A DNA stretch of 23,803 nucleotides from positions 1 through 23,803 of IMG/VR virus record IMGVR_UViG_2563366943_000008; one strand, given 5' to 3'. The number at the start of each line of letters is the position of its first letter. The first letter of the stretch is position 1. Position numbers and translations under genes: made by a program. This DNA is from a virus. Its lineage: Duplodnaviria; Heunggongvirae; Uroviricota; Caudoviricetes. The notes beneath the pieces were generated by a model that saw only the letters and a list, made by a program, of their open reading frames with translations, was not told the origin of the DNA and did no database searches. Below are positions 7,499-23,803 of the stretch, in pieces.

Positions 7499-7542
7499 CT
7501 GGCCTTTGCCTGATATTTTGCGACAAGTACGCGCGCGTAGCA
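7499..7542. repeat. dispersed repeat with alternating CG core (copy A)
   Basis: CTGGCCTTTGCCTGATATTTTGCGACAAGTACGCGCGCGTAGCA. Partial relatives at 7231-7253 (TTTCGTGACCAGTACGCGCGCGAG) and 7283-7303 (CCGACCAGTACGCACACGA). Confidence 0.6.
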
Positions 7543-7565
7543 TCGACAGCATACACATTGGATAT

Positions 7566-7787: not shown

Positions 7788-7866
7788 ATCTGATCCTCAC
7801 CTATCGTCACTACCTGCTGGTGTATAAAGGTATTGGCCCAAGCAACTTTCCAATGGGCACTCATGT

Positions 7867-8322
7867 TTATACGCTGACCTTACAATCAATCACTGCTTTT
7901 AGCTTTTCAGCATTGCTTCCCTGACGCTTCCACGCGCTGTAAATATCTTTATCCCACGCTTTACCAGCTTTTGTTTGATAGCCTGCTTCATTGATCCGTT
8001 CAGCTATCACACGCCCATTATCAAATCCCTGTTGGATGGTATCGGCAATGATCTTTATAACTGCCGTTTCGTTATATGGTTTTGGTGGGATGTTCGGCTT
8101 TCCGGCAATAAGCGACGCAGCGGCTTTTTCCATGCGCTCCACCAGCCCAAGCATTCGTGAATCAATAGACTTTTCCGGCTGCCCCAGCTTCATGCGAATC
8201 GCATCAACAAGCCAGGAGGTTTTATCTCCTCCAGAAGCGAGAACAGACCGATTAAACTCATCCTGCAATTCAGATGGGATGCGGAACGCGACCAGATTAG
8301 ATTTGCTCATTGCAAAGACCAT
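7867..8322 (-). CDS. putative ribbon-helix-helix DNA-binding regulator with C-terminal extension
   Basis: 151-aa ORF. N-terminus NLVAFRIPSELQDEFNRSVLASGGDKTSWLVDAIRMKL fits a beta-strand / helix / helix RHH pattern. A palindromic operator-like sequence lies immediately upstream. An alternative start at 8310 (MSKSN) is possible. Confidence 0.5.
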   Translation of the reverse strand: MVFAMSKSNLVAFRIPSELQDEFNRSVLASGGDKTSWLVDAIRMKLGQPEKSIDSRMLGLVERMEKAAASLIAGKPNIPPKPYNETAVIKIIADTIQQGFDNGRVIAERINEAGYQTKAGKAWDKDIYSAWKRQGSNAEKLKAVIDCKVSV

Positions 8323-8339
8323 ATCAGTGAGTAATATCC

Positions 8340-8545
8340 ATACAGTATACCACTGTATAACACTGTTATACGCTCAAATATCAGCCAGAAAATAACGGAC
8401 CAATCACAAATCTATCGCTGTGTTGTTGGTTCAGAGCTGGGCTGTGTTGGTTCAAAATGAGTTGATGTTGGTTCAATATTTCAGAAAAAACACAATAAAA
8501 ACAACAATCTTTACAAATTGAACCAACTGAACCAACTGAACCAAC
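8340..8545. promoter_or_regulatory. divergent control region with phased iterons
   Basis: Palindrome GTATAAC-ACT-GTTATAC at 8355-8371. Three direct copies of TGTTGGTTCA at 8424, 8445 and 8467 (spacing 21-22 bp). AT-rich spacer. Three tandem inverted copies TGAACCAAC at 8519, 8528 and 8537. TATAAT at 8563-8568 just before the 8582 start. Confidence 0.55.
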
Positions 8546-8581
8546 ACCTTTTTGCTTATCTATATAATCTGAGAGGCAGAA

Positions 8582-8863
8582 ATGATAAGGGACAGGAAAG
8601 CTGAAGAGCTGGAGTCAAAAGGGCTATACCGGAGAGCTGCCGCACGATGGATGGAAGTCATGCTGTTATGCACCGAGGACGATGATCGGGAATGGATAAA
8701 GCGCCGCCGTGAAACGTGTCTGGAGAACGTGAAGCGCCCGCCCGTGAAGGTTGAGGAATTTGGCGACCTGCATAAAGCTGTTACCGAAACGCAACACCGC
8801 ATGGGGATAGCGCAACCGAACGGTAACGCCTTCCGGTTAAATGGCGGCAAGAGGCAAAGGTAG
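8582..8863 (+). CDS. small transcription-activator-like protein (PerC-family-like, tentative)
   Basis: 93-aa ORF MIRDRKAEELESKGLYRRAAARWMEVM. The N-terminal motif resembles PerC/Pch-type prophage regulators as recalled from memory. Directly downstream of the iteron region. Confidence 0.45.
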   Translation: MIRDRKAEELESKGLYRRAAARWMEVMLLCTEDDDREWIKRRRETCLENVKRPPVKVEEFGDLHKAVTETQHRMGIAQPNGNAFRLNGGKRQR

Positions 8864-8888
8864 ACCACCAGAGGGAAATCATCCTCTG

Positions 8889-8934
8889 GCTGGCGGTTTC
8901 TGGTATTTCGGGACAAGTACGCGCGCGCGTAGCA
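8889..8934. repeat. dispersed repeat with alternating CG core (copy B)
   Basis: CTGGCGGTTTCTGGTATTTCGGGACAAGTACGCGCGCGCGTAGCA. Same orientation as copy A, core GACAAGTACGCGCGCG(CG)TAGCA identical apart from one extra CG unit. Confidence 0.6.
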
Positions 8935-9160
8935 CCCAATCGGTGAGGAAATAGCGGCGACCTGAATGGTCAAAATCACAACGCAGCTATCCCCGTAAGC
9001 AGCGCTTAACGGAATAGCAGTAACCTGAATCCAGTGGGGAGGGGGTAGTCAAATCTCTACAGCCCTGACTATCCGGGACTGCCCGCCCCATCGTTTTTTT
9101 ATACCCGCGAAAAATGAAATTTAATCCGGGCGTGTTTCATTCTTCCAGAGGGTATGACGT

Positions 9161-9346
9161 ATGACACCACGCGAAATAGCCTTATTGACCATCGCCAAAC
9201 TTGAGCACGGAGGCCACCAGCTTACACAGGCAGATCAACGGGAGATAGAACGATCAGTTAATGCCGATATAGCCCGGCGCGACAGGTTCCGCGAAATGAT
9301 GCGAGCACCTGCCTACCAGTGGAAGAAGCCAGCGCCGCGCAGGTAG
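9161..9346 (+). CDS. hypothetical small protein (61 aa)
   Basis: ORF with a GAGGG Shine-Dalgarno-like sequence upstream; no recognisable motif. Confidence 0.3.
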   Translation: MTPREIALLTIAKLEHGGHQLTQADQREIERSVNADIARRDRFREMMRAPAYQWKKPAPRR

Positions 9347-9466
9347 ATATGGGATTATTCCACATGTAACTTATGCGTATTAAGCAAATTTCCTTTATTC
9401 ACCTTTACAGAATTGTGAGTACGTCAGTATCGTTATCCTTCCGATTCGCATTTATTCAGGATTTGC

Positions 9467-10009
9467 ATGTACCAGCTAAAGATAACCATCCGAGACAGCA
9501 AACCACCTATATGGCGGCGTGTGCTGGTTCCAGAGCAAATCCCCTTTAGTAAACTTCATGCCGTGATCCAGTTAGCTTTTGGCTGGAATGACGAACACCT
9601 GTATATGTTCGAGAAAGGGCGTAAAGGTGATCCAGGTAGCGAGTATCGCGTATGGGGTGAGGATGAAAGCATGGGTAACGCGGCAATCACGCCACTATGG
9701 GCGGCGCTCCAGAATGAGGGTGACAAGCTGGTTTACACGTATGACTTTGGCGACTGGTGGGATTGCGTCATTGTGCTGGAGAAGCAAACACACGATACGA
9801 GTAATCAGCCCATTAGCTGCCTGCGTGGGAAAGGCACCACCCCGGCGGAAAACTCAGGCGGCTTGCATGGTTACAATGAATTGCTATTACAGGCCAGAGA
9901 GTCTGATAATCCTGAGCAGGCCGAGATCCACAATTTCCTGATGCTGGATATTGAACGCCGGGTTTACGACCTGAGCCGCATCAACGACAGATTGCAGGCT
10001 ATTAACTGA
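9467..10009 (+). CDS. pRiA4b ORF-3-like family protein (tentative)
   Basis: 180-aa ORF containing YTYDFGDWWDCVI, which resembles the YxYDFGDxWxHxI signature I recall for the plasmid pRiA4b ORF-3-like domain. Confidence 0.45.
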   Translation: MYQLKITIRDSKPPIWRRVLVPEQIPFSKLHAVIQLAFGWNDEHLYMFEKGRKGDPGSEYRVWGEDESMGNAAITPLWAALQNEGDKLVYTYDFGDWWDCVIVLEKQTHDTSNQPISCLRGKGTTPAENSGGLHGYNELLLQARESDNPEQAEIHNFLMLDIERRVYDLSRINDRLQAIN

Positions 10010-10361
10010 CCCGCATGTATTCACCTGATATTGCGTTGTCAGCGCCGCCAGTATCGCGCATAACAGCGCACTGACCGGGTAAACCGTAGCGCACGACCGT
10101 TGCGTTAGTATCACCGCCGCGCCGTATCTGGCGCGATTCATACACTGTCACCCGCTCAAGCAGTCCACCAGCAACCATGCTTTCCAGTGTGCGCCGGGTT
10201 GATTCGAGCTGGTGACGCTTATCGAACGACACCATGCCATGAAGCAGGTAGGCCACACCCGACACATCGAACGGCGGCGCACCAATCTCACCAGTCACCC
10301 ATTCGAGGTTATCCGGTTCAAAGTAGCTAAGTATCTCTTTTTTGCGGCTGGTCATTCTCAT
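10002..10361 (-). CDS. hypothetical protein (119 aa)
   Basis: ORF convergent with and overlapping the 3' end of the 9467-10009 gene by 8 bp; AAGGA-like Shine-Dalgarno upstream of the ATG at 10361. Function unknown. Confidence 0.35.
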   Translation of the reverse strand: MRMTSRKKEILSYFEPDNLEWVTGEIGAPPFDVSGVAYLLHGMVSFDKRHQLESTRRTLESMVAGGLLERVTVYESRQIRRGGDTNATVVRYGLPGQCAVMRDTGGADNAISGEYMRVS

Positions 10362-10480
10362 GGCTGGCTGATTCCTTATTGTGGGATAGCACTATCATAC
10401 AATAAGTGGGTTAAAGGGAGAGCGTTACCGCCTGATATGCTGTATGAATAACAACCAAATTTCAGGGGCGGAAAAAGATA

Positions 10481-10501
10481 TGGGGGTACTTTTGGGGGTA
10501 T
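10481..10501. repeat. second copy of the TGGGGGTAC-N3-TGGGGGTAT motif pair
   Basis: TGGGGGTACTTTTGGGGGTAT at 10481-10501 versus TGGGGGTACTTATGGGGGTAT at 1558-1578: same orientation, one mismatch. Confidence 0.7.
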
Positions 10502-10562
10502 CTATAAAAAATGAACAATAAAAAAGGCAACAAAAACAAAGCTTATCGCCTATGTGTATTGT

Positions 10563-10582
10563 TCCTATTATCGCACAATCAA
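10563..10582. other. degenerate direct repeat of the tRNA-Thr 3' end (candidate attR core of module 1)
   Basis: TCCTATTATCG-CAC-AATCAA aligns with tRNA 3' end TCCTATTATCGGCACCATTCAA (1428-1449): 11/11 identical, then gapped similarity. Lies about 60 bp beyond the second TGGGGGTA pair. Confidence 0.45.
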
Positions 10583-11182
10583 GAAAATCAATAACTTAGC
10601 TTAACTTCTCTAAGAAATTGTATCTTCTGTTATCACTTACAAACGCCTATACGTTGTTATGGGCTTTGGTAGTGTAACACGTATGGGCGAGTAGTTCCCA
10701 GGCTCAACCTCGTAACAAGTTCCTTTGAAGCTGGAAGACGTGCCACCGTCTCTAAACCTTCTACCAAAACTCTTAGCAAGATGTTCCACACCTGGCGCGG
10801 TGTCCAATGATGCTACACGTCGTGAGACGTTGCAGAGGATAAACAGGCTAAATGATGGGAAGAGTTTTAAGTGCAATAGTGGATCAAAGCCCACCTCTTC
10901 AAAACCTAACTTGATCGGGAAAGAATCAAGCTCTAGCACGGTTTCGTCCACCGGAGTACAACGGGTGCCTGATAAGAGAAGAACTGCTAAGACTTCATAG
11001 CTTTTGTGAAAAAGCCCTTTTAGTGGATACGCCTACGGCGCTTATTTTTTGGGGTAGCCCATCAAAGGCGCTTTATGGCTCCTATTGTCTTGAAAATGTA
11101 TCTTTACTTGTATTGTGTTTTATGCGTAGTCTCCCTGTGTAGTATGTAACTTGTTAATTTTCATATGAATACAGAGGCACAC

Positions 11183-11341
11183 GATGAAAAACATTGCAGC
11201 TATCAAACGTAATAACCGCAAGATTCACGCTCGTAAGTTCCTGTCTACGCCAGAAGGAAAAGCCTGGCTAGAGCGTAAACAGAGAGAGAACGAAGAAAGA
11301 AAACTCCTTAATGAGTTGAAATGGCTTAGAGAGGATTTCTG
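11183..11341 (+). CDS. hypothetical small basic protein (52 aa)
   Basis: ATG at 11183 with GAGG 6-9 nt upstream; translation MKNIAAIKRNNRKIHARKFLSTPEGKAWLERKQRENEERKLLNELKWLREDF. Below the ORF-track size cutoff, so found by eye. Coding status uncertain. Confidence 0.25.
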
Positions 11342-12153
11342 AAAATCTCCAGAACGCAACAGGACGCATTCTAACGCTATTTTCATTGCTTGGTATAGGG
11401 ATGTATAGGTGATGTGTGTTTAATGCGTCTGTGCGCTTGTTTTGTGCCTTATTTTGCATTTTCATAATGCAGAAGAGAACACGGAAAACCTTAAAATTAA
11501 TTATTGGGGTATTTAAGGGTATTTTCAGGTGATTTAAGGGTATTAAACTTGATTTAATTGATTAAAATATAAACAGATAGTTGTGTATCTTATTGATTTA
11601 TAAGGTTATTTTTAAATAAAGGTAAATAAAAAATAAATAGCCATAAATAGCTATAAATACATCTAAATACCTATATCCCTTCCCTTATGGCTAGATTGCG
11701 AGAGGTGCTTAACGCGATTTTCAGCGCCCCCCGATCTGGAAAATCCAGAATCCCCAAATATCAGCAAGGAATTTTCTTGCGTAATCAACATCGTTTTTAC
11801 CTATTAAATCATTACACAGAAAGCCTTTCTGTAATGTCTCTCACTAAACTTTCACTAAACACGAGAATGATCGGTTTTATGTCGGATCAGATGCTAGAAA
11901 CAGCACCACGTCTCACAAGGACTGTAAGCGATGAAACCAGTGTTTATGCGGGTGCAGGTCAAAATATAGGCCAAAATCAATTTAACATAATAAACGTAAT
12001 ATGCACTAAGGAACACATAGAACGCCTTGAGTTGATGTATCAGGGGAAAAGTGATGGATTTTTTACGTAGGAGCACGAGAGGGCTTCTGTTGACTTTTGT
12101 ATGCTATGAAACATAATTAAAGGTTTTTTTGTTTTTATTGTGTGATGTAGTGG

Positions 12154-13127
12154 ATTACACAGGGGAATAGATTAAATGGTGTTCTGTTTATACAGGTTTA
12201 TTTGTTAGATCAACAATTTGGCATTTCTAAACAGATGTTTGAACGTTGCCAAATGTCTTGACAACACAAGAAAAGGGCTTGCTATGCCACGCATTACACG
12301 AAATAAGGCTGTAAAAACAAAATAAATTTTAAAATTTGCACAAACGAGAAAACTCGTTAAGAAACAAGCAGAACAATTTTTAGCCAACAATTTCTGATGG
12401 TGCTCTGTAGGCCGCACTACACAAGGATTTGCGAAAGTGATGTAAAAGTGAAGAAAGTAAGAATTGCACTTTTAAGCTACTTTTCATTGAATTTTTAGTA
12501 TGGAATTACACAGGAATAAGTTAGGGATATTCTATGATTTACACAGGGAATATAGGGGATTATGGCACACACATAGAAAGGCATTACACAGAGTGAGTGC
12601 TATGTGATGATTGGTAGTAACGGTAGGTCATAGTGAGCTAGGGGGTAGGTCACTGTGAACTACAATAAGACTATTAATAAAACTATATTAGATTATTAAT
12701 TAGATCATAATAATAATATTCTTTATATCTATATATATGATCTTTTGCCTTCCGGCGTTAGCTTCACTCTCTGGCAAGCAGCCTTACTCCGCTACCTTTC
12801 GGGCTTCGTGGCTGGCCCGTTCCGCTCACACCGAAAGCAAAGCGTTACTTTCTTCGTGTAACTTCGTTGGCGGTAACGCCCACGAAGAAATCTATTGCGC
12901 TGTGCGCAGTAAGAGTAATCACCTAACCAATCATACTGATTGCTTATGTGTTAACTCTCTCTAACTCTTAATTACCCTCCTACATTTAATAACTCTGTTA
13001 TTCTCTGTAGTTGTGTAATTACTCGAAGAGAGAGCGGCTAAAGCTCAATTACACTCTGCTTTCCTCGTGTAATTTCACTAAGCCTCAATACAATTTCACT
13101 TCCTACATTCTGTAGTCGTGTAATTGT
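12154..13127. repeat. iteron field flanking an AT-rich tract and GC-rich core (origin-like region)
   Basis: Direct copies of (A/T)TTACACAGG(G/A)AATA at 12154, 12505, 12538 and 12583, plus variants at 12293 and 12417. Inverted copies CGTGTAA(T/C) at 12855, 13012, 13066 and 13117. 17-bp repeat TCTGTAGT(T/C)GTGTAATT at 13004 and 13110. GGTAGGTCA repeats at about 12625 and 12649. Extremely AT-rich tract at about 12660-12745. Confidence 0.5.
12745..12915. ncRNA. candidate structured RNA or single-strand initiation element (strand undetermined)
   Basis: GC-rich patch inside AT-rich DNA. Hairpin CTTCGTTGGCG-GTAA-CGCCCACGAAG (12862-12887; 10 of 11 positions pair, GNRA-type tetraloop). Hairpin CGGGC-N10-GCCCG (12800-12819). 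Long-range complementarity CTTACTCCGC (12783-12792) with GCGCAGTAAG (12904-12913). The overlapping 75-aa ORF has a non-protein-like sequence. Confidence 0.25.
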
Positions 13128-13761
13128 TTTCGGTGGAAAAGCCAGAGGCGACACCGAAAGAGAATTCTGATCTTATTAATCTTATCTATCTTAGTTAATC
13201 TTCTTACTTATCTTACTTACTTTATCTACTTTATTATTAATAATAGCTTTATAAGCTCTCTGTGTAGCTCTCTGACGCAAGAAACAGCATTCAGGAAGGG
13301 AATCACCTTAGAAAAGGTGTTCTTTGCGTCATAATGTGTTTTATGAAGGATTCAGAGGTGTTTCATAACAGGAATGTATAGAGAATACTTTAGGTAATTA
13401 AAAATAAGGGGTCTAAATGCTTCTCTAACAGCATTAAGCAGGGTAGGGAATGGAAACGCATTGCCTACATATAATAAACTCACTACAGGGCTTTACAGGG
13501 CGTTTTATAAAGCGACTCTCTGTTTTATATCTACAATCACCTTTTCATATACCTAACAAATACAAAATAAGCCCCTTAAATAAGCCTCTGGCGAGCTAAA
13601 CAGACATTACATAAGAGAATGTATTGCTTTTATCAAAACTTCGTTAGAACGCGTTTTAGAGCGTTTTAGCGGATAATGAAGAATAGCACTACACAGAAGA
13701 GCACGAATTGCTAAGACAAATTATAACATGCTGAAAAAGATCGATTTTTTCGAAAAGGGTA

Positions 13762-13790
13762 TTGACAAATGTTTCTTTATATGTAATAAT
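13762..13790 (+). promoter_or_regulatory. sigma70-like promoter upstream of the rightward small-gene array
   Basis: TTGACA at 13762-13767, 16-17 bp spacer, TAATAA(T) at 13784-13790. The -35 is embedded in GGGTATTGACA, sharing the GGGTATT motif seen elsewhere in the element. Confidence 0.4.
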
Positions 13791-13903
13791 AGGTATTAGA
13801 GGGACAGAAAAACATTCTTCTCTAAATAATCAAAATCAATGCACTTTGAAGCCGTCAGGCTTGCAAGGTGTTTTATTTCTTTTAACTGAATAAGGAGTTT
13901 TTT

Positions 13904-14092
13904 ATGAAATGGTTTACACCGGAGCACGTCGTAAAGGCATTTAAAAAAGGTGAGCTTACACGCCACCAAATAGTAATGAATCGTAATATGGCAAGGAGTC
14001 GAGGTTATCCAGAGCGAGCAGCTTGCTTCAATGAAGCACTCAAGATTATTGATGAACTAAGAAAAAATGAAAAAGAATCTGAAACAGAGTAA
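13904..14092 (+). CDS. hypothetical small protein (62 aa)
   Basis: ATG preceded by TAAGGAG Shine-Dalgarno at optimal spacing; first gene downstream of the promoter. Confidence 0.5.
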   Translation: MKWFTPEHVVKAFKKGELTRHQIVMNRNMARSRGYPERAACFNEALKIIDELRKNEKESETE

Positions 14093-14111
14093 AGAAGAGA
14101 AGGAGAAAACT

Positions 14112-14282
14112 ATGAGCGAAGCTACAGAAAAGAAAAGACAACCACGCACTTGCTTTCATATTCCTGATGAAGTATTTCAGGTGTTGTTTAAAGAAGCCAG
14201 AAGTAAACGTATCACTGTTACAGATTACATTCTTGATATGTTGAAAAGAGAGGCTGAAACACTCTCAAATAAAAGCAAGTGA
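14112..14282 (+). CDS. putative ribbon-helix-helix (CopG/Arc-like) DNA-binding protein, 56 aa
   Basis: ATG at 14112 with GAAGGAG upstream. RTCFHIPDEVFQVLFKEARSKRITVTDYILDMLK fits strand-helix-helix. The ORF track starts earlier (14067) at an upstream in-frame ATG lacking a Shine-Dalgarno. Confidence 0.5.
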   Translation: MSEATEKKRQPRTCFHIPDEVFQVLFKEARSKRITVTDYILDMLKREAETLSNKSK

Positions 14283-14335
14283 TTTTTATCACCATAGTAG
14301 CGCCATAGAGCGTGATTACATCAAGGAGATTTTTA

Positions 14336-15028
14336 ATGATTAACCAACTAACTTTTACAAAACACTATGACACGTTTGATAATATATCAAAGATTTATTC
14401 TGATAAATTCCCTCAAGGAAAAGATTTAGATCTATTACATATTGTGCTTTATTTTCGATTCCTTAGTTATCAGGAAAACAACCTTAATTGTTATGAAAGT
14501 CACGAAACATTAGCTAAGATTTTTAAGTCTTCACCATCAACAATTAAACGTAAGATAAACGATCTTAAAGAGATGGGATTATTAGAAACATCCCCACATC
14601 CTGATCCGTATATTTCATCTTTGATTTACAATGCTCTCCCTCTCACAGATGCACATATTACTCCCCCAGGAGAATCATCACTCTCTGATCTTTCTGAGGC
14701 AGAAGAAGCACAGGAACAACCTAAAGGCCATAAACAGCCTTCTTTTGATGTTCTTGATGATGATTGGGATACGCCTTTACCCTGGGAGACGGAAGAAACA
14801 CCTGTTTCATCAAGTGAAAAGGTAGCTAATGATAATGAGGAGGATGTGTTAGAGAATTTTGCCTCTCTTATCATCCAGGAGAAACACAAAAGAACAGGAG
14901 GGGCATCATTTATAGAATTTGCAAATTCACTAGCTTGTAGATACGGGCTAAAACGACCAAATGGTATTGAGGCATATTTTTCTAAGCATTACCCAAATGT
15001 ATACGAAGACTTTGATATTCCCTTTTAA
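14336..15028 (+). CDS. putative winged-helix DNA-binding protein with acidic C-terminal tail (replication-initiator / replisome-organiser-like)
   Basis: ATG at 14336 with AAGGAG 9 nt upstream (ORF track starts at 14312). N-terminal segment ETLAKIFKSSPSTIKRKINDLKEMGLLE is a typical HTH. C-terminal third is strongly acidic (DDDWDTPLPWETEETP...EEDVLENF). Confidence 0.45.
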   Translation: MINQLTFTKHYDTFDNISKIYSDKFPQGKDLDLLHIVLYFRFLSYQENNLNCYESHETLAKIFKSSPSTIKRKINDLKEMGLLETSPHPDPYISSLIYNALPLTDAHITPPGESSLSDLSEAEEAQEQPKGHKQPSFDVLDDDWDTPLPWETEETPVSSSEKVANDNEEDVLENFASLIIQEKHKRTGGASFIEFANSLACRYGLKRPNGIEAYFSKHYPNVYEDFDIPF

Positions 15029-15044
15029 AAAGTAAGGAGGACTA

Positions 15045-15323
15045 TTGATACAGTATTTAATAAAAAGCAAAGTAGACAGAATTCAGTGTAACGACACAGG
15101 AAAACGCATCTACGAAACGCTTGCTTACCTCTATAAAGGAAAGCCAACACCGCTAAAATATAGCGATGTGTTACATCGAGCAGGTTGCTCTGAGTCAGGT
15201 TTAAAATTCTGGCTGAAACAGCTATCAAATTTCGGTGTTATTGAAATGAAAGAGCTGTCTTTCTCTACATTTAATCTCAAAAGACTAGATAAAGAAATAG
15301 AATTCATCTATTCCACTCTCTAA
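15045..15323 (+). CDS. small HTH-type DNA-binding protein (92 aa)
   Basis: TTG start with very strong TAAGGAGG Shine-Dalgarno 6 nt upstream. Contains a probable HTH (YSDVLHRAGCSESGLKFWLKQL). Confidence 0.45.
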   Translation: MIQYLIKSKVDRIQCNDTGKRIYETLAYLYKGKPTPLKYSDVLHRAGCSESGLKFWLKQLSNFGVIEMKELSFSTFNLKRLDKEIEFIYSTL

Positions 15324-15455
15324 AATCTCTCTATGTAATTAAAATATAAAAGGAAAACATTATTATGATAGTAGCTATGTATTGGTTATTGTTCTTTCTC
15401 ACGTTAGAAGCATATTTCGGGGTGTTTTCCTTTAAAAGAAAAGGAAAAGTAAATT

Positions 15456-15866
15456 ATGGCAAAAAGAAAAAACAACGTTGTTAAGAAAATCGGTGATTCA
15501 GCTTCTCTTCTAAGTAAACCTAAATCTATTCTAAAACGTAAAGACTTTAAAGAGCTAGTTACGCTCACCAAGCATAATAGCGCCCCTGGCGAATGGAAAA
15601 CAGAGATCATAGAACATTCTCCCTCTGTGCCTTGTGGAGATGAATATATCGCCTTACAAGAAATCTTATCTTCAACACCTGGCGTGTTCTGGAAACCTAA
15701 AAAAAGAAAAGAGTATATCGTTGATAGCTCTGATTTACGCAAATACCAGATTTTAGGATTTGAAGATTATAATCACTACGTTGGTTATCTCGCCACAAAT
15801 GGCCTAAATAATTTAGTTCCTGAATTCCAGATTTTAGATAATGCAGATCACTATGGAGACTTTTAA
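15456..15866 (+). CDS. hypothetical basic protein (136 aa)
   Basis: ATG with AAGGAAAAG upstream. Lys/Arg-rich N-terminus. Stop codon is 1 nt before the start of the next gene. Confidence 0.5.
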   Translation: MAKRKNNVVKKIGDSASLLSKPKSILKRKDFKELVTLTKHNSAPGEWKTEIIEHSPSVPCGDEYIALQEILSSTPGVFWKPKKRKEYIVDSSDLRKYQILGFEDYNHYVGYLATNGLNNLVPEFQILDNADHYGDF

Positions 15867-15867
15867 T

Positions 15868-16206
15868 ATGAACAAAAACACGTATGACACAATTTACTCA
15901 CTAATTAATTATTATGAGGATGATTACCTCCTGCCTTTAAACCGCGCTGAACTTGAAGCATACAAAGAAAACACGCCAGCGGCACTAAATGAGGCGTTTA
16001 AACACTGGGATTTAGCTGTGAATGCCTTTGAGCACCTCTCTAAGCGTGTAGAGATGCTCTGTAAGCGCGAAAACGCATACCTGACAGCCGATCAGGTATG
16101 GGAATTATCAAACTGGATAGAAGATATTGAATCTGATGTTCGCTATGTGGGAGATGGACTTGTTGAACTAGCGCAACGCTTAGGCGCTACTATCACAGAA
16201 GAATAA
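15868..16206 (+). CDS. hypothetical acidic protein (112 aa from ATG 15868; in-frame alternative starts at 15841 and 15853)
   Basis: GGAG 9 nt upstream of ATG 15868; translationally coupled to the preceding gene. Confidence 0.45.
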   Translation: MNKNTYDTIYSLINYYEDDYLLPLNRAELEAYKENTPAALNEAFKHWDLAVNAFEHLSKRVEMLCKRENAYLTADQVWELSNWIEDIESDVRYVGDGLVELAQRLGATITEE

Positions 16207-16235
16207 AAAAAGCAACAAAAAAGTTGTAAAATATC

Positions 16236-16264
16236 TTGACATTCCATCTATTGTATGTTAATAT
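16236..16264 (+). promoter_or_regulatory. near-consensus sigma70 promoter
   Basis: TTGACA (16236-16241), 17-bp spacer, TAATAT (16259-16264). Confidence 0.5.
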
Positions 16265-16270
16265 AATTAT

Positions 16271-16491
16271 ATAGGGGTGATTATTTTTCCTTTATTGGTT
16301 CGATATTAAAAATTCTTCCTGTCATTAAAGGGGAGTAAAATCTCCGCTCCCCGCTTCTTCTCCTCCTTAAGTAAATACTGTGCCATTATACCTCTTTGTT
16401 ATGCATACATCTTGGAGTATGCATAACATAGGGTAATTACATAGGTATGAGTTAATAAAAGGCGGCTTTAAATGCTGCCTTTTATTTTGCC
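16271..16491 (+). ncRNA. candidate small RNA or structured 5' leader (about 220 nt)
   Basis: Lies between the promoter at 16236-16264 and a hairpin plus T-tract at 16457-16488 (AAAAGGCGGC-TTTAAAT-GCTGCCTTTT-ATTTTG). No ORF longer than about 11 codons on this strand. Contains hairpin GGGGAG-N11-CTCCCC (16330-16352), pyrimidine tract CTTCTTCTCCTCCTTA (16355-16369), and inverted repeat TTATGCATA / TATGCATAA (16399-16426). Confidence 0.3.
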
Positions 16492-16550
16492 CGTTATACA
16501 ACTTAAAAGTTGTATTTCTTACTTTAAACAAGGTAACAAGGTTTATATAA

Positions 16551-16763
16551 ATGTTGCTCTTAAATGATAAAGAGCAAATCATCAAGTATAAAGATGAAAT
16601 GCTGAAAATTAATCCACAAATTACCGAAATGGTAGCTAAATACGCTGGGTGTTCTGTCGAGGAAGTAGAAAGATGTGTTGAAAAATATTTTTCTCCTTCT
16701 TCTCCGTCTACACCTTCCCTTAATGAATTAATCAAATTAAAAGCTAAGGAGATTACTAAATGA
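16551..16763 (+). CDS. hypothetical small protein (70 aa)
   Basis: ATG at 16551; stop overlaps the start of the next gene (ATGA). Weak Shine-Dalgarno. Confidence 0.4.
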   Translation: MLLLNDKEQIIKYKDEMLKINPQITEMVAKYAGCSVEEVERCVEKYFSPSSPSTPSLNELIKLKAKEITK

Positions 16764-17122
16764 TTATTGATTTAGACACTCTGTTTCCAGTTCGAAAGAC
16801 TTTCACGGATATTGTAAGTTATTGTACTGATCCGTTTGCCTCTGTAGAAAGCAAGGTTTTTGCTTCTCTTCCTGCTGATGTTGAGTGCGGCGACTTGATC
16901 ACCAGCACTGGCGCTAAATATGAATCAGGAGATGATATTTATGTTGTTATGAGTGAATTTGTAACGGCTGGAGAAAACAAGCCTGTAGATGTGCTACGTA
17001 GCAATGCTGGGCTTGTATGCATCAAAGCTGATGCGCTGAATGCTGTAAGTGAAGCAGCAAAAACAGCATTAATTAAAAAAGGCTTTCAGCTTGAAGGGTT
17101 CCATTCTGTTTTCACTTCTTAA
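16760..17122 (+). CDS. hypothetical protein, 120 aa (position and size compatible with a head-decoration or scaffold-like protein)
   Basis: AAGGAG Shine-Dalgarno 9 nt upstream. Immediately precedes the capsid-like gene, as gpD precedes gpE in lambda. No direct sequence support. Confidence 0.45.
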   Translation: MIIDLDTLFPVRKTFTDIVSYCTDPFASVESKVFASLPADVECGDLITSTGAKYESGDDIYVVMSEFVTAGENKPVDVLRSNAGLVCIKADALNAVSEAAKTALIKKGFQLEGFHSVFTS

Positions 17123-17140
17123 TAAAAGGAATAATAATAA

Positions 17141-18169
17141 ATGATTCTAGGTAATGATTACGTTGATTTAGCTCCTCTGTTCTCTGCGCATAGCACTAGA
17201 AATTATCTACTTTCTACTCTCGACTTCACTGATCCGGTGGGCGTTAGTTCTCATAAAGTAGCTGTTTCCCAGCTTGTCGAAAGCAACGAATCTCTCTTTA
17301 ACAAAGAGACAAGCCGTTTTAGTTCTGAACACAATGTTACTAAGCGAGAACAAGGTAAAGAATGGCTGATCGAAATCCCTTACTTCCTGCGTGAAGATGT
17401 GATCCGTCCTTCTGATGTTCAAGGCAAGCGTAAGCCTGGCACTGATTTTCAGGAAACACTCACTGATATTTATGCTGACTATGTTGCTAAACACCACGTA
17501 GCGTATCAGCGTACAAAAGAGAGCGTGCTGGCTGCATCTCTGTTTAGCGGTAAAACTTACACGCCTAAAACTGATGATGTTCTTATCGAGTGGAGCAAGC
17601 TGTTTAACGTATCAGCTATGAAAGCCACTGTGAACGCTTCCAGCACTGACACCACGAAGATTTTTAAAGAATTTGATCAGATTGCTACTGACATTATCGA
17701 AAAAGCACAGAGTCAGGCGGCGGCTGTAGAGCGAATTGTTGTTTTCTGTAAGCCGGAAGCCTTCTCTGCAATTCGATTCTCTGCTGGTATGGCAAACGCA
17801 TTCCAGTATGTAAGCCCACTGGAAGAGGGGAACGTTGTGTATCAGCGTCGTGACCTGCTGCCAGGGGTGACAGCGTTCACTATTCCAGGAACTAACATTG
17901 ATGTTGTTAAACTGGTAGATCCGCTACACCTGGCACATATGACCGCAGACGCTGTAGCTGTGCCTAAATTCTCTAAGGGTAGCGGAATTTATACCAACAT
18001 CTACGGGGCTGCTTCCAGCACCTTTGAACTGATTAATGCCGCTCCTGCTGAGGTGTATAGCTATAGCTATGAATCTTCTCGTGGTGATGCTGTTAACGTT
18101 GTTACAGAGAATAGCCAGATGGTGGTAAACCACGGTGTAGGCTTCTCCGTTCAAATCACTGTTAAATAA
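17141..18169 (+). CDS. putative major capsid protein (lambda gpE-like / HK97-fold candidate), 342 aa
   Basis: Length close to lambda gpE (341 aa). Local resemblance IVVFCKPEAFSAIRFS versus lambda IIVFDPKGWALFRS as recalled from memory. No signal peptide or enzymatic motif. Followed by a strong intrinsic terminator, consistent with a highly expressed structural gene. Confidence 0.4.
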   Translation: MILGNDYVDLAPLFSAHSTRNYLLSTLDFTDPVGVSSHKVAVSQLVESNESLFNKETSRFSSEHNVTKREQGKEWLIEIPYFLREDVIRPSDVQGKRKPGTDFQETLTDIYADYVAKHHVAYQRTKESVLAASLFSGKTYTPKTDDVLIEWSKLFNVSAMKATVNASSTDTTKIFKEFDQIATDIIEKAQSQAAAVERIVVFCKPEAFSAIRFSAGMANAFQYVSPLEEGNVVYQRRDLLPGVTAFTIPGTNIDVVKLVDPLHLAHMTADAVAVPKFSKGSGIYTNIYGAASSTFELINAAPAEVYSYSYESSRGDAVNVVTENSQMVVNHGVGFSVQITVK

Positions 18170-18187
18170 TATTTTAACGTGTAATAG

Positions 18188-18224
18188 AGGCGTGGCGTGA
18201 ATAACACGCTTCGCCTTTTTTTAT
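18188..18224 (+). terminator. rho-independent terminator
   Basis: AGGCGTGGCGTG-AATAA-CACGCTTCGCCT stem-loop (10 of 12 stem positions pair) followed by TTTTTTTATTTATTTTT. Confidence 0.75.
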
Positions 18225-18255
18225 TTATTTTTAAATTTTGAGAGGTGATTAAAAT

Positions 18256-18459
18256 ATGGAAGTGATTTTGAAATCAAAAAATGGTGTACACGTACATTTA
18301 GATGCTAATGATTCTAGAGGATTGTTAAATCTGAAATATCTCTGTTCTCTTTTAGATGTTCCCTATGAAGGAGTAAAAGCCCGTATGTTCAGATTAAACG
18401 AGAGTATTGATCAGGCTCTACACCATTTCTTAAGCAAAGAAGGTGGTAAAAATGATTAA
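18256..18459 (+). CDS. hypothetical small protein (67 aa)
   Basis: ATG with GAGAGGTGA Shine-Dalgarno-like sequence; lies between the terminator and the next gene. Confidence 0.4.
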   Translation: MEVILKSKNGVHVHLDANDSRGLLNLKYLCSLLDVPYEGVKARMFRLNESIDQALHHFLSKEGGKND

Positions 18460-19378
18460 TAAGGGGATTTTAAATGTTAGAAATTAACACTTCTAAAATT
18501 AAGAACACAGTAACATTTAGTGTAGATAAAGACAGCTTGAAAAAAGCGAAAGACTCTATTACAGGCTTAAAGGAATTTGCAGAGAATATCAAGCCAGCTA
18601 AGTTAAGGTTTGATAATGTCACTAAAGGCTATAAGAAAGCACAAAGTGAAGTAGACAAGATTGCTCAACAGAAAGCTAAAGCCGAAAAACAGAATCAAAG
18701 AGTACAAGCTGCCGCAGCAAGAGCACAGGCAAGGCAACAGCAACAAATAGCAGCACGTAAAGAGAAAGCAGAATTAAAACTCCTCGATGTGTCAAGCTCT
18801 ATCAGTGCAATGCACCGTCTCTCTGTAGCTGAACAATACAAAGCTATTGCACAGGCTAGAGAAATTGCCCTCCAATATGAAAGAGGCGCTATTAGTCTGG
18901 CACGTATGAATAGCCAGATGAAACGCTTACAACAGCAACAACGTAAGATTAATGGCAACAGAAAAGCACAATTAGCCCCCGTTAAGGGAGGATCAGGGAA
19001 TTCCGCCACTATGGGCGCTCTGTTATTTGGAGGCGCTACGGCTGCTGCTGGCGTGATGGCTGTTAGTAAAGCGTCGGAGTTTGTTAGTAGCAGTTTCGCT
19101 AACGCAGAGACCCAAGGGGAGCTAATCCAACGTGCAAGGCTTGGCGGTGTAGACGTTAACCAGATGTATAATATTACAGAATGGGCGTATAGAAACGGCG
19201 TTGACTCTATGATGGGTGATCAAGGGGCTAGGAAATACCTGGATCAGATGAAAGATGTTAGGGAACGTGCCGCAAAATCCTACAGTGAAGCTGAATTGGT
19301 GAAAGACAAGAAAACCGGAAAATCTGAATGGAAAGGCGGTGATAATGCTATTAATGAACTTCTAAACTGGATTTGCCC

Positions 19379-20284
19379 CTATATTTCCAGACATCTGTTA
19401 TCACTTAACCCATTACAAGCCCGCTGCCGCAGATATTCCCGTGGCGAGCGATAACCCAGCGCACTATGCGGATGCCATTCGTTATAATGCTCGAACGCCT
19501 CTGCAAGGTTCTTTGCTGCCGTTAACCCGTCTGGTTTGGGCATGATACTGATGTAGTCACGCTTTATCGTTTTCACGAAGCTCTCTGCTATTCCGTTACT
19601 CTCCGGACTCCGCACCGCCGTGTTCTTCGGTTCAAGTCCCAACATCCGGGCGAACTGGCGTGTTTCATTAGCCCGGTAGCATGAACCATTATCCGTCAGC
19701 CACTCCACTGGAGACGACGGAAGATCGTTGCCGAAGCGGCGTTCCACCGCTCCCAGCATGACGTCCTGTACTGTTTCACTGTTGAAGCCGCCGGTAGTGA
19801 CCGCCCAGTGCAGTGCCTCACGATCACTGCAGTCCAGCGCGAACGTGACACGCAGTCTCTCTCCGTTATCACAGCAGAACTCGAACCCGTCAGAGCACCA
19901 TCGCTGATTGCTTTCTTTCACGGCCACTCTGCCTGTATGTGCCCGTTTCGATGGCGGTACAGCAGGTTTTCGCTCAAGCAACAGCGCATTCTGGCGCATG
20001 ATCCGGTAAACACGTTTGGCATTGATCGCAGGCATACCATCAAGTTCTGCCTGTCTGCGAAGCAGCGCCCATACCCGACGATAACCATACGTGGGCAGCT
20101 CTCCGATAACATGGTGTATACGGAGAAGCACATCCGTATCATCAGTGTGACGACTGCGGCGGCCATCCATCCAGTCATCGGTTCGTCTGAGAATGACGTG
20201 CAACTGCGCACGCGACACCCGGAGACAACGGCTGACTAAGCTTACTCCCCATCCCCGGGCAATAAGGGCGCGTGCGCTATCCAC
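19379..20284 (-). CDS. insD: IS2 OrfB (InsD) transposase catalytic (DDE) domain; expressed as OrfAB by frameshift
   Basis: 301-aa ORF overlapping insC; sequence matches IS2 InsD. Confidence 0.88.
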
Positions 20285-20607
20285 TTTTTTGCCCGTCCAT
20301 ATTCAACGGCTTCTTTGAGGAGTTCATTTTCCATCGTTTTCTTGCCGAGCAGGCGCTGGAGTTCTTTAATCTGCTTCATGGCGGCAGCAAGTTCAGAGGC
20401 AGGAACAACCTGTTCTCCGGCGGCGACAGCAGTAAGACTTCCTTCCTGGTATTGCTTACGCCAGAGAAATAACTGGCTGGCTGCTACACCATGTTGCCGG
20501 GCAACGAGGGAGACCGTCATCCCCGGTTCAAAGCTCTGCTGAACAATTGCGATCTTTTCCTGTGTGGTACGCCGTCTGCGTTTCTCCGGTCCTAAGACAT
20601 CAATCAT
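20242..20607 (-). CDS. insC: IS2 OrfA (InsC) transposase N-terminal / regulatory protein
   Basis: 121-aa product [53 protein letters not shown] matches IS2 InsC (HTH). Confidence 0.9.
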
Positions 20608-21673
20608 CTGCTCTCCAATGACTAGTCTAAAAACTAGTATTAAGACTATCACTTAAATAAGTGATACTGGTTGTCTGGAGATTCAGGGGGCCAGTCTATA
20701 AACATCGGTGTTATTAACAAAAGCGACCTTAAAAAATTTGCTGATAATCCGGCTGGATTAATTTCTAAGGCTGTTAATGGAATGATGAAAAAAGGGTTTT
20801 CAGACTCCCAAATTGGACAACGTTTAGAAGACCTGGGCGATGATTTGATGCTTACGTCAAAATATTGGCAACGTTCCGTTAAAGATGTACAAGAAAGTAT
20901 TAATCAGCAAAAAGCCTCTGGAAAATGGCTAACAGAAACACAGCAAGACTCTATTGTTAAATTCAGAGAACTAAACAGACAGCTTTCACAGCTTTCTGAT
21001 GCAAGACAAGTAGCATTCGTAGACGGCTTTATGAAATCTCTCGATCCAAAAGTAACGGAAGAGTTTATGAAAAACCTTTCTAATCTCACTCCGTATTTTA
21101 CGAAGCTGGGAGAAGCTACAGGAAGTCTCTTTGAAGCTATTATGAAGATTGTAAACTGGTTTAATCGTAATGATGATAAGACAGATGCTATTCAGAAAAA
21201 TATGGGTGATGCACCGCCATTAAGCAATGAAGGGATGAAACAGAATCTTTCTAATCTCGTTCCTAATCAATATAAAGGCGCTGGCACTGCAACAACTACA
21301 CCTGATAATAGTCATTCTCTCTTTAACACAATTAAGGGATTGCTTTTCGATGATAATTCTTCTGTGTCAGATGTAAAAATGTCAGTCAATGAAGCACCGA
21401 TAACCAATCTCAAACAGGGTGCTTTAAATAATCTTGCAATGACAACTCCAGCTTATAATTTATCTCCTGTGTTTAATCTGAATCCTACATTTGAAGTGGT
21501 AACAGAAGTGCCGCTAACTATCGAATCAGACACCGGACGATTGAGCGATTATGTGGATTTTACAGCGAGAGCAAGTCGGGATAGCTTCTTGAAATCATTA
21601 ACATTAACCAGCTTATCAGGACAATCCAACGGCGGGTAATTCCCGCCATAACATTACAAGGAAAATTATTATT

Positions 21674-22387
21674 ATGGCGACCGCCGGGATTTTAACCATA
21701 CGTGCAGCAAATACTCCAGAACAACACGTTCAGGCTGTTTACAAAGCAGAACAAGATATAAATTCTACAAAAAACGAAAATAGCAAAGCTAATAAAACAA
21801 AAGGAGAGAACGGATTTGCTATTGTTACCAGTGGCTTGGCATCTTCTGGTAATGACGTTTATGAAAATTATATGGCACTGGCCTTTGATAGTGTTGACGA
21901 TGTGAACGTGAGACGTTCGGCAGATGTCACAAGCTACCCCGTAGAAAATGGTGCTACTGTGTCTGATCACGTTCAAATTAAAAACAATAAGTTCTCTCTT
22001 AAAGGGCGTATCACTGAAACACCGATTAAAAGCGATCCTGGCTTGTTAAAGAGTGCAGGGGTGAACGGGAACAGAAGATCATTAGCTATAGACTACTTGA
22101 ATCAGATTATGGACAGTAGACAGCCTTTTCTTCTTGTTACAGAAAATAAAACTTTTGAGAACGTTGTTTTAACAGGCATCGAATACACAGAAGAGGCAAG
22201 CGAATCCCTGGTATTTGATCTTAGCTTTGAACAAATAAGATTAGTTTCTTATGGTACTGTAAACACTGTAGCTATCAAAACACAGCCATCTAAGAACATC
22301 GGGGCGAATATGAAAAAACGTGTTAACACTGAAAAATCAAGTAGTGAAGGTGAAGACACTATTACTCCTGCCTTTAAACAGGAATAG
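21674..22387 (+). CDS. hypothetical protein (237 aa), predicted beta-rich
   Basis: ATG with AAGGA upstream; last gene of the rightward array. No recognisable motif. Confidence 0.45.
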   Translation: MATAGILTIRAANTPEQHVQAVYKAEQDINSTKNENSKANKTKGENGFAIVTSGLASSGNDVYENYMALAFDSVDDVNVRRSADVTSYPVENGATVSDHVQIKNNKFSLKGRITETPIKSDPGLLKSAGVNGNRRSLAIDYLNQIMDSRQPFLLVTENKTFENVVLTGIEYTEEASESLVFDLSFEQIRLVSYGTVNTVAIKTQPSKNIGANMKKRVNTEKSSSEGEDTITPAFKQE

Positions 22388-22428
22388 CCGTAAATGCCTC
22401 TAAAACGCTCTGTAACGATGTAATTATA

Positions 22429-22461
22429 AAAGAGGCTACCAATCTATGTTGAAGCCTCTTT
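22429..22461. terminator. bidirectional hairpin between convergent genes
   Basis: AAAGAGGCT-N15-AGCCTCTTT, a perfect 9-bp stem, located 8 nt beyond the integrase stop and about 40 nt beyond the 237-aa gene stop. Confidence 0.5.
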
Positions 22462-22468
22462 ATTGCGT

Positions 22469-23803
22469 CTATGGCGTTGTTTTGCGCATTAAATTTGATT
22501 TTTTATTGATTGATAAGCCTTTCTCTATTTCAGGGTAGCGTAGAAGCTCAATATAGTTTTTAAGCTCTACTGGAGAAGCTGCATTCTTGCTATATGTGCG
22601 GAATGTCTCTGTATTGCCGCGTGTATGGCCCAGGAGAAGGGCGATCCTGTCTTCTGGAATTTGATTTCGATCAAGAAGCTGTGCTACTCCGTGTCTCAGA
22701 GAATGAAACACCTTCCTTTCTGTTCCCTTTTCCCCTAAAGCCTTTCGTTTAGCTCTTGTAAATCTCTGCGTGTGCCACGTGGAACGTTTACCATCAGCAC
22801 GCTCTGTAATGCTGGCGTGATAGAACAAAAAGCCATTATGAGGCTTTTCACGCAGCGACAACACCAACGGAGTGATAAGGCTATGCACAGGCACAAGACG
22901 TGCCGCAGCTTTCGTTTTTCCCTGTGTGATTTCAAAACACAGCACACCTTCGATCTCTTTCACATCGTCTATTGTGAGACTTGCTATCTCATTGATCCGC
23001 ATACCTGTATAAGCACCGATAAGACACAAAGCCATCATTTCTTTGTTTTCTGCTGAATCACCGGAAAATACTTGCAACACCTGCAATAGCTCTTTGTTAG
23101 AAAATGCCTCGTAGCTCTCTCTACTTTGTGCCACATCAAGCCTATGCCCTCGCCAGGGGGAGAGCGCCCTTTCTGGCGCATCGTGGTAACGTGATGAAGC
23201 TAACTCCCATAGCTGGGCCATTGGGCTGATATAATTTGCAATTGATTGTTGTGAAAGGGTTTTTTGCATGTGTTCTATCCAGCCTGTAACAGTGGTGCGG
23301 CTTACATCTTGCAATGCAATATCAGGCTTTTTACGGTAGGAGAGAAACATCTCTACCGCTTTTCTTGCCTTAGCTAAAGTGGCTGGCTTCTTCTTCGTGC
23401 TGTTAATTGTCAGGTAGATTTCAAGAATTTTAAGCAATGACGGACACGAAGACGCTGTATCTTGCATTCTGGTAGCTGTTTTGGCGTATTTAGCCTTACT
23501 GCGTAACAGTTCCAGCGTGTTCTCTATTGTGCTGTTTACAGGGGCGACACTCTCCCGTAGACAATGGTATTCATCTGCAATCTGATCACGCTTTCTACGT
23601 GCAACACGAAGACTACTTGTGTGCAGACTTCTGACAAACGTCCTTTTTCCTTCAAAAAAGGGCTGCATATACACAGGCAACGTGATCCTCAAATAGTAGT
23701 TACCGTAAGAATCACAGATTATGTATTGATTGGGCTTGTATCTCATAAACTCCCCGGCTAAAGTGTCGGAGCGTTTGTAATGTGAAAATTGATTGTAACG
23801 CAT
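22469..23803 (-). CDS. tyrosine integrase / site-specific recombinase (second, distinct family), 444 aa
   Basis: Start ATG at 23801-23803 (window edge). C-terminal catalytic motifs GMRINE, HSLRHGVAQLL, LLGHT and a downstream Tyr typical of tyrosine recombinases. Clearly different sequence from the first integrase. Confidence 0.85.
   Translation of the reverse strand: MRYNQFSHYKRSDTLAGEFMRYKPNQYIICDSYGNYYLRITLPVYMQPFFEGKRTFVRSLHTSSLRVARRKRDQIADEYHCLRESVAPVNSTIENTLELLRSKAKYAKTATRMQDTASSCPSLLKILEIYLTINSTKKKPATLAKARKAVEMFLSYRKKPDIALQDVSRTTVTGWIEHMQKTLSQQSIANYISPMAQLWELASSRYHDAPERALSPWRGHRLDVAQSRESYEAFSNKELLQVLQVFSGDSAENKEMMALCLIGAYTGMRINEIASLTIDDVKEIEGVLCFEITQGKTKAAARLVPVHSLITPLVLSLREKPHNGFLFYHASITERADGKRSTWHTQRFTRAKRKALGEKGTERKVFHSLRHGVAQLLDRNQIPEDRIALLLGHTRGNTETFRTYSKNAASPVELKNYIELLRYPEIEKGLSINKKSNLMRKTTP

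Follow-up and report, generated by a model that had tools for sequence, protein, structure and literature searches.

In bacteriophage lambda (read here from NC_001416) a strong sigma-70 promoter, PR′ (TTGACT-17-TAAATT), lies right after the last early, regulatory gene, and the untranslated 6S RNA of 194 nucleotides (nt) ends at a hairpin and T-run, past which the late structural genes follow (Q-PR′-6S RNA-tR′-late genes). Lambda nut (boxA/boxB) and HK022 put, structured RNAs of 15–70 nt in promoter-proximal leaders, make RNA polymerase read through downstream terminators, and the C4 RNA of P1/P7 and the CI RNA of P4 come from the leader of the operon that they control and act on a ribosome-binding region. 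In Stx phages PR′ is always active and in lysogeny is terminated immediately downstream (PMC7547250), while AlpA and Q proteins let polymerase pass an intrinsic terminator that lies downstream of a promoter, the AlpA system (Pseudomonas aeruginosa alpBCDE) having a regulator-binding element between -35 and -10 (PMC9371919). IsrK of Gifsy-1 is a mobile-element leader RNA that ends at a terminator, coexists with read-through and acts on a ribosome-binding region (PMC4825925). Here we describe a locus with the lambda layout ahead of the capsid genes of a chromosomal element of Escherichia coli. The window, i.e., the whole stretch of 23,803 nt that was analysed (IMG/VR virus record IMGVR_UViG_2563366943_000008), contains this element at 10500–23803, with genes for a capsid protein, a protein of 120 amino acids (aa), a tape-measure-like protein of 609 aa and a Dit-like protein; the region under study, with promoter, leader and terminator, lies at 16236–16488.

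On balance, this region is probably the control leader of the late (capsid) operon, a promoter-leader-terminator checkpoint of which an RNA of ~218 nt would be the default product. As in lambda, the promoter directly follows the last early gene, the predicted RNA is untranslated and ends at a hairpin and T-run, and the late structural genes lie past the terminator, where their dependence on read-through is predicted. Unlike lambda, the element is an island of ~12 kb with a capsid that is not lambda-like, and neither a Q-like protein nor an enriched -10-like pause element was found in it. Its leader is, moreover, a conserved, covarying RNA that reaches 950 nt in relatives, whereas we know of no conserved structure in the lambda 6S/tR′ leader.

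The other systems resemble the element in part. With the AlpA system it shares a promoter followed by an intrinsic terminator, and several relatives have a palindrome in the -35/-10 spacer; however, this palindrome is dyad-symmetric and measures 14 base pairs (bp), in contrast to the 6-bp ABE of AlpA, it lies upstream of the -35 in the E. coli type, and no Phage_AlpA domain or pause element was found in the element. Unlike C4 and IsrK, which control an antirepressor or replication operon, the unit precedes a capsid operon, and the element shows no match to the C4 model, no repeated complementary target boxes and no significant pairing of the leader with ribosome-binding sites (RBSs). An action like that of nut or put would explain why RNA structure is conserved in addition to a terminator, although the leaders of the element measure 220–950 nt and, unlike nut, the window leader has no boxA, which is sporadic in relatives, and no N-like protein was identified.

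Promoter, fold and terminator of the leader

The promoter consists of a -35 TTGACA (16236–16241), a 17-bp spacer with an extended TG (16256–16257) and a -10 TAATAT (16259–16264). A first reading of the DNA, made without database searches (the sequence-only reading), had called this a near-perfect sigma-70 promoter, and in a promoter scan it indeed scores 10/12 and is the top promoter-like site within 15000–18000. The strict pattern TTGACA-N14-TGN-WANNNT has two matches in the window, at 13762 and 16236; each lies on the + strand within the element. By chance 0.05 would be expected, and none of 100 shuffles contained at least two copies. These counts bear on the most sceptical explanation, i.e., that a promoter-like and a terminator-like sequence have met by chance in an AT-rich spacer without function. 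The region has 31% G+C, loose promoter-like matches are common (9 found vs. 7.7 expected) and no annotation across the leader exists in any of 307 genomes. However, the two strict matches in the same orientation, the strength of the fold, the presence of the unit at the same junction in elements with capsids 37–65% identical and the covariation in the relatives' leaders (see below) make such a coincidence highly improbable.

From the predicted start, the RNA would be about 215–219 nt long, which at the level of sequence agrees with the ~220-nt transcript proposed earlier. No open reading frame (ORF) of at least 20 aa was found on the + strand between 16271 and 16471, and the longest ORF in the leader (allowing ATG, GTG and TTG starts) has 18 codons, as expected from the earlier description of a stretch with no plausible ORF. 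Indels of 1, 2, 3, 8, 10 and 17 nt, mostly in linkers, occur among the E. coli copies, and the positions of ORFs in the relatives' leaders are not conserved; because the indels break reading frames and there is no conserved ORF, a small protein encoded in the leader was rejected. In the scans no + strand terminator-like site was found in the stretch that separates the last early gene from the leader promoter. Downstream of this promoter, no + strand promoter-like site was listed as far as 17109, and thus none from the terminator to the start of the first late gene.

The 221-nt leader has a minimum free energy (MFE) of -63.7 kcal/mol (RNAfold), compared to -44.7 ± 4.0 kcal/mol for 200 dinucleotide shuffles (z -4.75); the minus strand also folds (z -4.30). 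Four elements make up the fold, i.e., a 5′ hairpin, a GC hairpin with an unpaired tract, a 12-bp hairpin and the terminator hairpin (Table 1). The GGGGAG/CTCCCC hairpin and the pyrimidine tract of the sequence-only reading are both there, and the former contains a U-G pair that would give an A-C mismatch on the opposite strand. CUCCU occurs twice in the window leader against 0.31 expected. What had been described as a 9-bp inverted repeat is indeed a repeat but a longer one, a perfect hairpin of 11–12 bp in which 16397–16408 pairs with 16417–16428. The terminator-like hairpin announced before the next gene is present in the MFE structure as well as in the centroid, at 16454–16486, with a stem of up to 13 bp (core GGCGGC/GCUGCC) and a 7-nt loop, followed by UUUUAUUUU; in a scan for hairpins with a T-run it scores -13 to -15 kcal/mol in the E. 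coli copies. A simple terminator scanner missed it, since the first T's are taken up by its stem.

Among 26 distinct E. coli variants, 24 of 130 paired positions are variable compared to 33 of 101 other positions (Fisher p 0.014), and the three core hairpins are invariant except for one A to G change at 16419, the sole stem change, which turns a U-A into a U-G pair and thereby keeps the pairing. The length of the tract differs among E. coli copies by whole CCT units (CTCCTCCT vs. CTCCTCCTCCT), and the window copy lacks an 8-nt CTTTTTTC that is present in most other E. coli copies; both look like slippage in a linker.

Table 1. Positions of the leader, its parts and the neighbouring features (window coordinates unless a locus is named)
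Feature	Position	Strand	Remarks
Sigma-70 promoter with extended -10	16236–16264	+	predicted start ~16271; representatives of the related groups share the architecture
Predicted noncoding transcript (terminated leader RNA), ~218 nt	16271–16488	+	no ORF; fold z -4.75; frame-breaking indels; no Rfam match
5′ hairpin AUAGGGG...UUCGA...CUUCCUGU	16271–16322	+	MFE structure
GC-rich hairpin GGGGAGU/GCUCCCC	16330–16352	+	in MFE and centroid structures; invariant in 26 E. coli variants
Pyrimidine tract CUUCUUCUCCUCCUUA (also given as CTTCTTCTCCTCCTTA)	16354–16369	+	predicted unpaired
12-bp hairpin UGUUAUGCAUAC/GUAUGCAUAACA, 8-nt loop	16397–16428	+	within extended helix 16378–16444
Intrinsic terminator AAAAGGCGGC-TTTAAAT-GCTGCCTTTT, then ATTTTG	16454–16488	+	MFE and centroid structures
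Palindrome CAACAAAAAAGTTG (CAAC-N6-GTTG)	16213–16226	.	candidate protein-binding site; centre ~51 bp upstream of predicted start
Palindrome ATACAAC-TTAAAA-GTTGTAT	16496–16515	.	core CAAC-N6-GTTG at 16499–16512; just after terminator
Tandem AACAAGGT x2, perfect	16527–16542	+	weak Shine-Dalgarno region of first late gene; two AAGG-like sites
Last early gene, 112 aa, helical	15868–16206	+	no Pfam or PHROG match; stop 30 bp before -35
First late gene, 70 aa	16551–16763	+	first gene past terminator; first after the gap in all relatives
Second late gene, 120 aa	16760–17122	+	directly upstream of capsid gene
Major capsid protein gene (Phage_cap_E fold family)	17141–18169	+	Pfam PF03864, E 2.5e-14; PHROG 29; would be the chief cargo of the operon
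Short Phage_integrase-domain gene (relatives)	L007 2017–2595; L013 2166–2726; L010 2061–2675; L016 1138–1689	-	

Conservation in relatives and covariation

Relatives were collected as 100 metagenomic and viral loci (from capsid-alignment scans) together with the contexts of seven capsid homologues. The capsid homologues, with 37–97% identity, come from Escherichia, Citrobacter, Klebsiella, Enterobacter, Cronobacter, Dryocola, Sodalis and Serratia, and those down to 37% identity keep the same arrangement upstream of the capsid gene. Gene order is shared by the seven contexts and the 100 loci. The leader unit is the junction between the early block and the capsid (late) block: an ORF-free gap of 330–950 bp was found at this place in all 92 distinct relatives (Escherichia, Klebsiella, Enterobacter, Citrobacter, Dryocola and Serratia), and in the window, three more annotated E. 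coli loci and 12 loci of other genera it separates the early block from the 70-aa, 120-aa and capsid genes. Over ~100 loci the gaps fall into classes of 333–356 bp (the E. coli type), 518–568, 564–810 and 876–883 bp, and the relatives' leaders are often three to four times longer than that of E. coli.

The gap opens with a near-consensus promoter, matched in every E. coli-type copy and in representatives of every group; most of the 92 distinct gaps have a TTGACA-like -35, a spacer of 16–18 bp and mostly an extended -10. At its other end, 89 of the 92 have, ahead of the first late gene, a hairpin with a T-run that scores -7 kcal/mol or better; where the nearest one was picked, it lies ~40–80 nt before the start codon of that gene. 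The terminator stems are unrelated between groups (GGCGGC, GCCGGAAG, AGGGGC, GGCGAC, GCCGGGG and AAGCGGC), which points to selection for function and not for sequence. That the terminator is kept while its stem sequence is free to change is the strongest argument for selection of a transcription stop ahead of the late genes. The unit of promoter, ORF-free structured stretch and terminator is conserved in position and function across genera. The G-run and UUCGA-type loop motif of the 5′ end and the order of GC hairpin and CU tract reappear in several other groups.

The E. coli copies are too alike to show covariation, and therefore 21 leaders of 580–690 nt from Enterobacter, Citrobacter and Klebsiella were used for this. 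In these relatives a composite of domain-wise RNAalifold structures (113 pairs in 18 helices) is 88.9% paired compared to 42–48% with slid partners, although the percentage is inflated by the derivation of the structure from the same alignment. The counts of double changes are not inflated in this way: both sides have changed in 46 pairs, against 13–17 for slid partners, and one helix of 10 pairs shows double changes at 9 of them. None of 500 shuffles reached the observed percentage paired, number of double changes or covariation score; the number of further pair types did not exceed all 500 shuffles. The relatives' leaders are thus a covariation-supported structured RNA. Near-invariant U-G pairs (alignment columns 127–137 in 20 of 21 leaders, 369–431 in 21 of 21 and 684–698 in 19 of 21) would be A-C mismatches on the other strand, and the transcribed strand is therefore the + strand.

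Two palindromes flank the unit in the window (Table 1), where YAAC-N6-GTTR has three matches in total. In 17 kb of an Enterobacter locus (L013), TAAC-N6-GTTA has just two matches, one within the promoter spacer and one past the terminator, and a downstream copy is also present in locus L007. The outer arms of the downstream palindrome covary in relatives like an RNA hairpin (helix 17), and the palindromes may be operators for a dimeric protein, RNA hairpins, or both. One could go further and regard the conserved hairpins as acting at the level of DNA, in an operator region, in packaging (as a cos/pac site) or as a signal for single-strand initiation, with transcription being incidental. The flanking CAAC-N6-GTTG copies, the TAAC-N6-GTTA pairs in relatives and the folding of both strands would fit this, and an element without a terminase must carry a packaging signal somewhere. 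It seems, nevertheless, very unlikely: only one strand conserves the oriented promoter and the T-run that follows the hairpin, many invariant U-G pairs would turn into A-C mismatches on the opposite strand, the free change of stem sequence between groups misfits a sequence-specific site, and an origin-like cluster of iterons lies elsewhere (11811–13124). A lambda-like cos was considered separately and rejected, as GGGCGGCGACCT-like strings, searched by eye, occur in leaders only inside covarying stems of a few relatives.

Possible read-through of the terminator or action in trans

In the mechanism that we favour, the strong sigma-70 promoter would fire directly after the last early gene and give an untranslated, highly structured leader. 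By default, RNA polymerase would stop at the intrinsic terminator, 60 nt before the first late gene; a discrete RNA of ~218 nt would accumulate and the capsid genes would stay silent. The terminator would also shield the late genes from transcription of the early operon, as there is no terminator between that operon and the leader promoter. Late-gene expression would then need read-through, and control of it would lie with the nascent leader, through an RNA-binding antiterminator or a polymerase-modifying RNA, rather than with a DNA-loaded Q-type factor; this step is suggested by the fact that RNA structure is what is conserved. We infer that the terminator works in vivo, that its read-through is regulated and that a factor acts on it. 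One of the two proposals of the sequence-only reading, a structured leader controlling the capsid-like operon, is supported by the position at the junction in every relative, by the lack of a listed promoter past the terminator and by the covariation.

Several points weigh against this reading. The discrete RNA and the regulated read-through are predictions, and the homology of short and long leaders would rest on position and order of motifs, without a significant match of sequence or covariance model; in a global alignment of all leader groups, too divergent for use, the mean column identity is 37%. Members of the Q, AlpA or N families are absent among the element proteins in Pfam and PHROG searches, the proteins of 62, 56, 92, 136 and 112 aa have no Pfam, PHROG or PDB-sequence match, and an AlphaFold model of the conserved 136-aa early protein (23 homologues) is unusable (predicted local distance difference test, pLDDT, of 55); the read-through factor may be supplied by a helper phage. 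A -10-like pause element is not enriched in the initial transcribed regions of 14 representatives (combined p 0.87), the best pause-like hexamer of the window being GATTAT at 16279–16284 (p 0.40). Neither boxA (GCUCUUUA-like) nor ops (GGCGGUAGnnUG) is present in the leaders of the window and of O26; boxA-like strings occur in 4 of the 14 representative leaders and ops in none. A weak or activator-dependent promoter may also lie after the terminator, where the second palindrome is located. Finally, the relatives' leaders, at up to ~950 nt, exceed the needs of a simple gate, which hints at further functions.

The other proposal of the sequence-only reading was a small RNA (sRNA) that masks RBSs in trans. 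In the form considered here, it would use its exposed tract as a block on the Shine-Dalgarno (SD) regions of mRNAs of the element, a helper phage or the host, the position of its gene being incidental. Several features are consistent with this. The unit has a strong promoter and a long-U-tailed terminator to itself, which would give a discrete RNA, and the tract is predicted to be unpaired. The motif itself is real and conserved: CUCCU/CCUCC occurs in all 14 representative leaders, typically 2–3 times where 0.3–1 would be expected, in several relatives within a hairpin loop (CAU-UCCUCCUUAAA-AUG), while GGAGG/AGGAG is absent from most. The best pairings are with early-gene RBSs (-14.5 kcal/mol for the 56-aa gene and -14.2 for the 92-aa gene), and StxS, a by-product of PR′-tR′, is a regulatory sRNA (PMC7547250). 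However, over the RBSs of 23 window genes the pairing with the tract (RNAduplex) tracks the strength of 16S anti-SD pairing, the weakest values being -4.2 kcal/mol (first late gene) and -5.6 kcal/mol (capsid gene), and no extended specific complementarity was found. Leader pairing with the start regions of late genes is no better than with shuffled targets in any of the 14 representatives (-11.1 kcal/mol in the window vs. -12.6 ± 2.2 when shuffled, z +0.69; z -1.7 to +1.2 over the representatives). The suggested check of pairing between leader and SD regions has, therefore, yielded only generic anti-SD pairing, and masking of RBSs finds no specific support. The variable tract length among E. 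coli copies is unusual for a seed, no Rfam sRNA family is matched at threshold, and a role in trans explains neither the constant placement at the early/late junction nor relatives of 400–950 nt. As the main job of the RNA, such an action is thus unlikely. Features of Hfq-type sRNAs are mixed (terminator and U tail present, CU motif conserved, tract length variable, no specific target found). An additional activity in trans, of the kind known from StxS and IsrK, may belong to the terminated RNA, with no target evident. Taken together, the observation of promoter, ORF-free stretch and terminator is confirmed and its earlier interpretation partly supported.

A combination of both roles, with the short RNA acting in trans on the read-through transcripts, where it would activate or block translation or elongation of the late operon, and setting a threshold for late expression, in the manner of IsrK, P1 C4 and P4 CI, appears quite unlikely. 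The layout of IsrK is alike, with a promoter, an sRNA ended by a Rho-independent terminator, partial read-through and a short form that acts on the long one (PMC4825925). In two groups, independently, RNAalifold also draws pairs between leader pyrimidines and the SD of the first late gene: in group B these are GUUCC with GGAAC and CGCG with CGCG, and in the Klebsiella group CCUUYUU with AAAAAGG. These long-range pairs, however, never covary, the duplex energies are no better than those of shuffles, the SD of the first late gene is weak in the window and pairs poorly with the tract (-4.2 kcal/mol), and the C4 family (RF01695) is unmatched even at E = 10.

The checkpoint reading attributes a known logic to an unannotated RNA family, which in relatives reaches 650–950 nt with a complex conserved structure. 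With the 4,227 covariance models of Rfam 15 at the gathering threshold, the window gives only tRNA-Thr and seven related loci give no match; a permissive scan of 16150–16600 with E up to 10 did not have C4 among its matches, and a 771-nt Enterobacter leader has no Rfam match at E ≤1. Neither the element family nor its RNA was found described in literature searches. A tentative alternative is that we are dealing with an undescribed class of structured noncoding RNA (0.2 to ~0.95 kb), specific to undescribed compact capsid-encoding elements of the Enterobacterales, in which the RNA itself is the regulator; it may, for example, cause antitermination in a put-like or N-independent way, sense infection by a helper phage or be an abundant SD decoy, and the 218-nt E. 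coli form may be its minimal version. A phage origin of the leader was rejected, the window region and the Enterobacter leader being unmatched in 50,697 phage records (blastn). For a type III toxin-antitoxin system, tandem RNA repeats before the terminator are missing, the sole tandem repeat in 16150–16600 (AACAAGGT x2) lying after it.

The capsid element and its setting

The window is 100% identical to E. coli chromosome record NZ_OZ547117.1 and contains proA and tRNA-Thr (thrW, 1369–1444), followed by two tandem islands. The second island, the capsid element of ~12 kb, is carried by 308 of 5,426 complete E. coli genomes; in O26 RM8426 and strain Z217-4 it is found at thrW by itself. On its early side, an ORF-poor stretch of 2.5–3 kb is followed by the promoter at 13762, small genes, a helix-turn-helix protein of 230 aa that resembles a replication initiator, genes of 92, 136 and 112 aa and the leader. 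On its late side the leader is followed by the 70- and 120-aa genes, the Phage_cap_E capsid gene, a 67-aa gene, the 609-aa tape-measure-like gene, the Dit-like gene and an integrase on the opposite strand. No terminase, portal or protease was found among the element proteins with Pfam and PHROG, PADLOC gave no match for the element, and the only matches of the capsid protein among the 50,697 deposited phage records are capsids of 23–25% identity from Pseudomonas phages of ~90–100 kb. To our knowledge, the element fits none of the known satellite families.

The unannotated, ORF-poor stretch of 2.5 kb at 11343–13903 has a counterpart of 1.1–3 kb at the same position in all relatives. It holds eight of the nine window copies of YGTGTAAT (1.5 expected), five on the - strand (11811–12590) and three on the + strand (13012–13124), as well as two 19-nt repeats at 12622–12662. 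The block 12700–13119 folds strongly (z -3.6 to -6.2), with a part at ~12895–13106 that is ~70% identical to an Enterobacter locus, and no pseudogene remnants were found in 11343–13903. This stretch probably serves as an iteron origin and may contain a further structured element. A second consensus promoter (TTGACA-17-AATAAT with TG, 13762–13790) lies ~110 nt upstream of the first early gene.

The other island, at 1610–10400, lies in tandem between thrW and the capsid element and encodes an integrase, a P22 gp16-like ejection protein, a PerC-family regulator and a pRiA4b ORF-3-like protein. It is interrupted by IS1 (3543–4269), and IS2 (19379–20652) splits the 609-aa tape-measure-like gene of the capsid element. 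Relatives have an extra Phage_integrase-domain gene of 183–205 aa, at the end opposite to the full-length integrase (Table 1); it is missing from the E. coli type, where no remnant is detectable.

If the gate model holds, the leader would be the switch that decides when a widespread, uncharacterised element of E. coli, Klebsiella and Enterobacter makes its capsid, and capsid production would link this element with a helper phage and with horizontal transfer. The unit, which is small and has sharp boundaries, lends itself to tests with reporters. The long relatives add a covariation-supported RNA of ~650 nt without an Rfam family from among the best-studied bacteria, where such RNAs are rare. 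The identity of the read-through factor would probably show how the element senses induction or superinfection.

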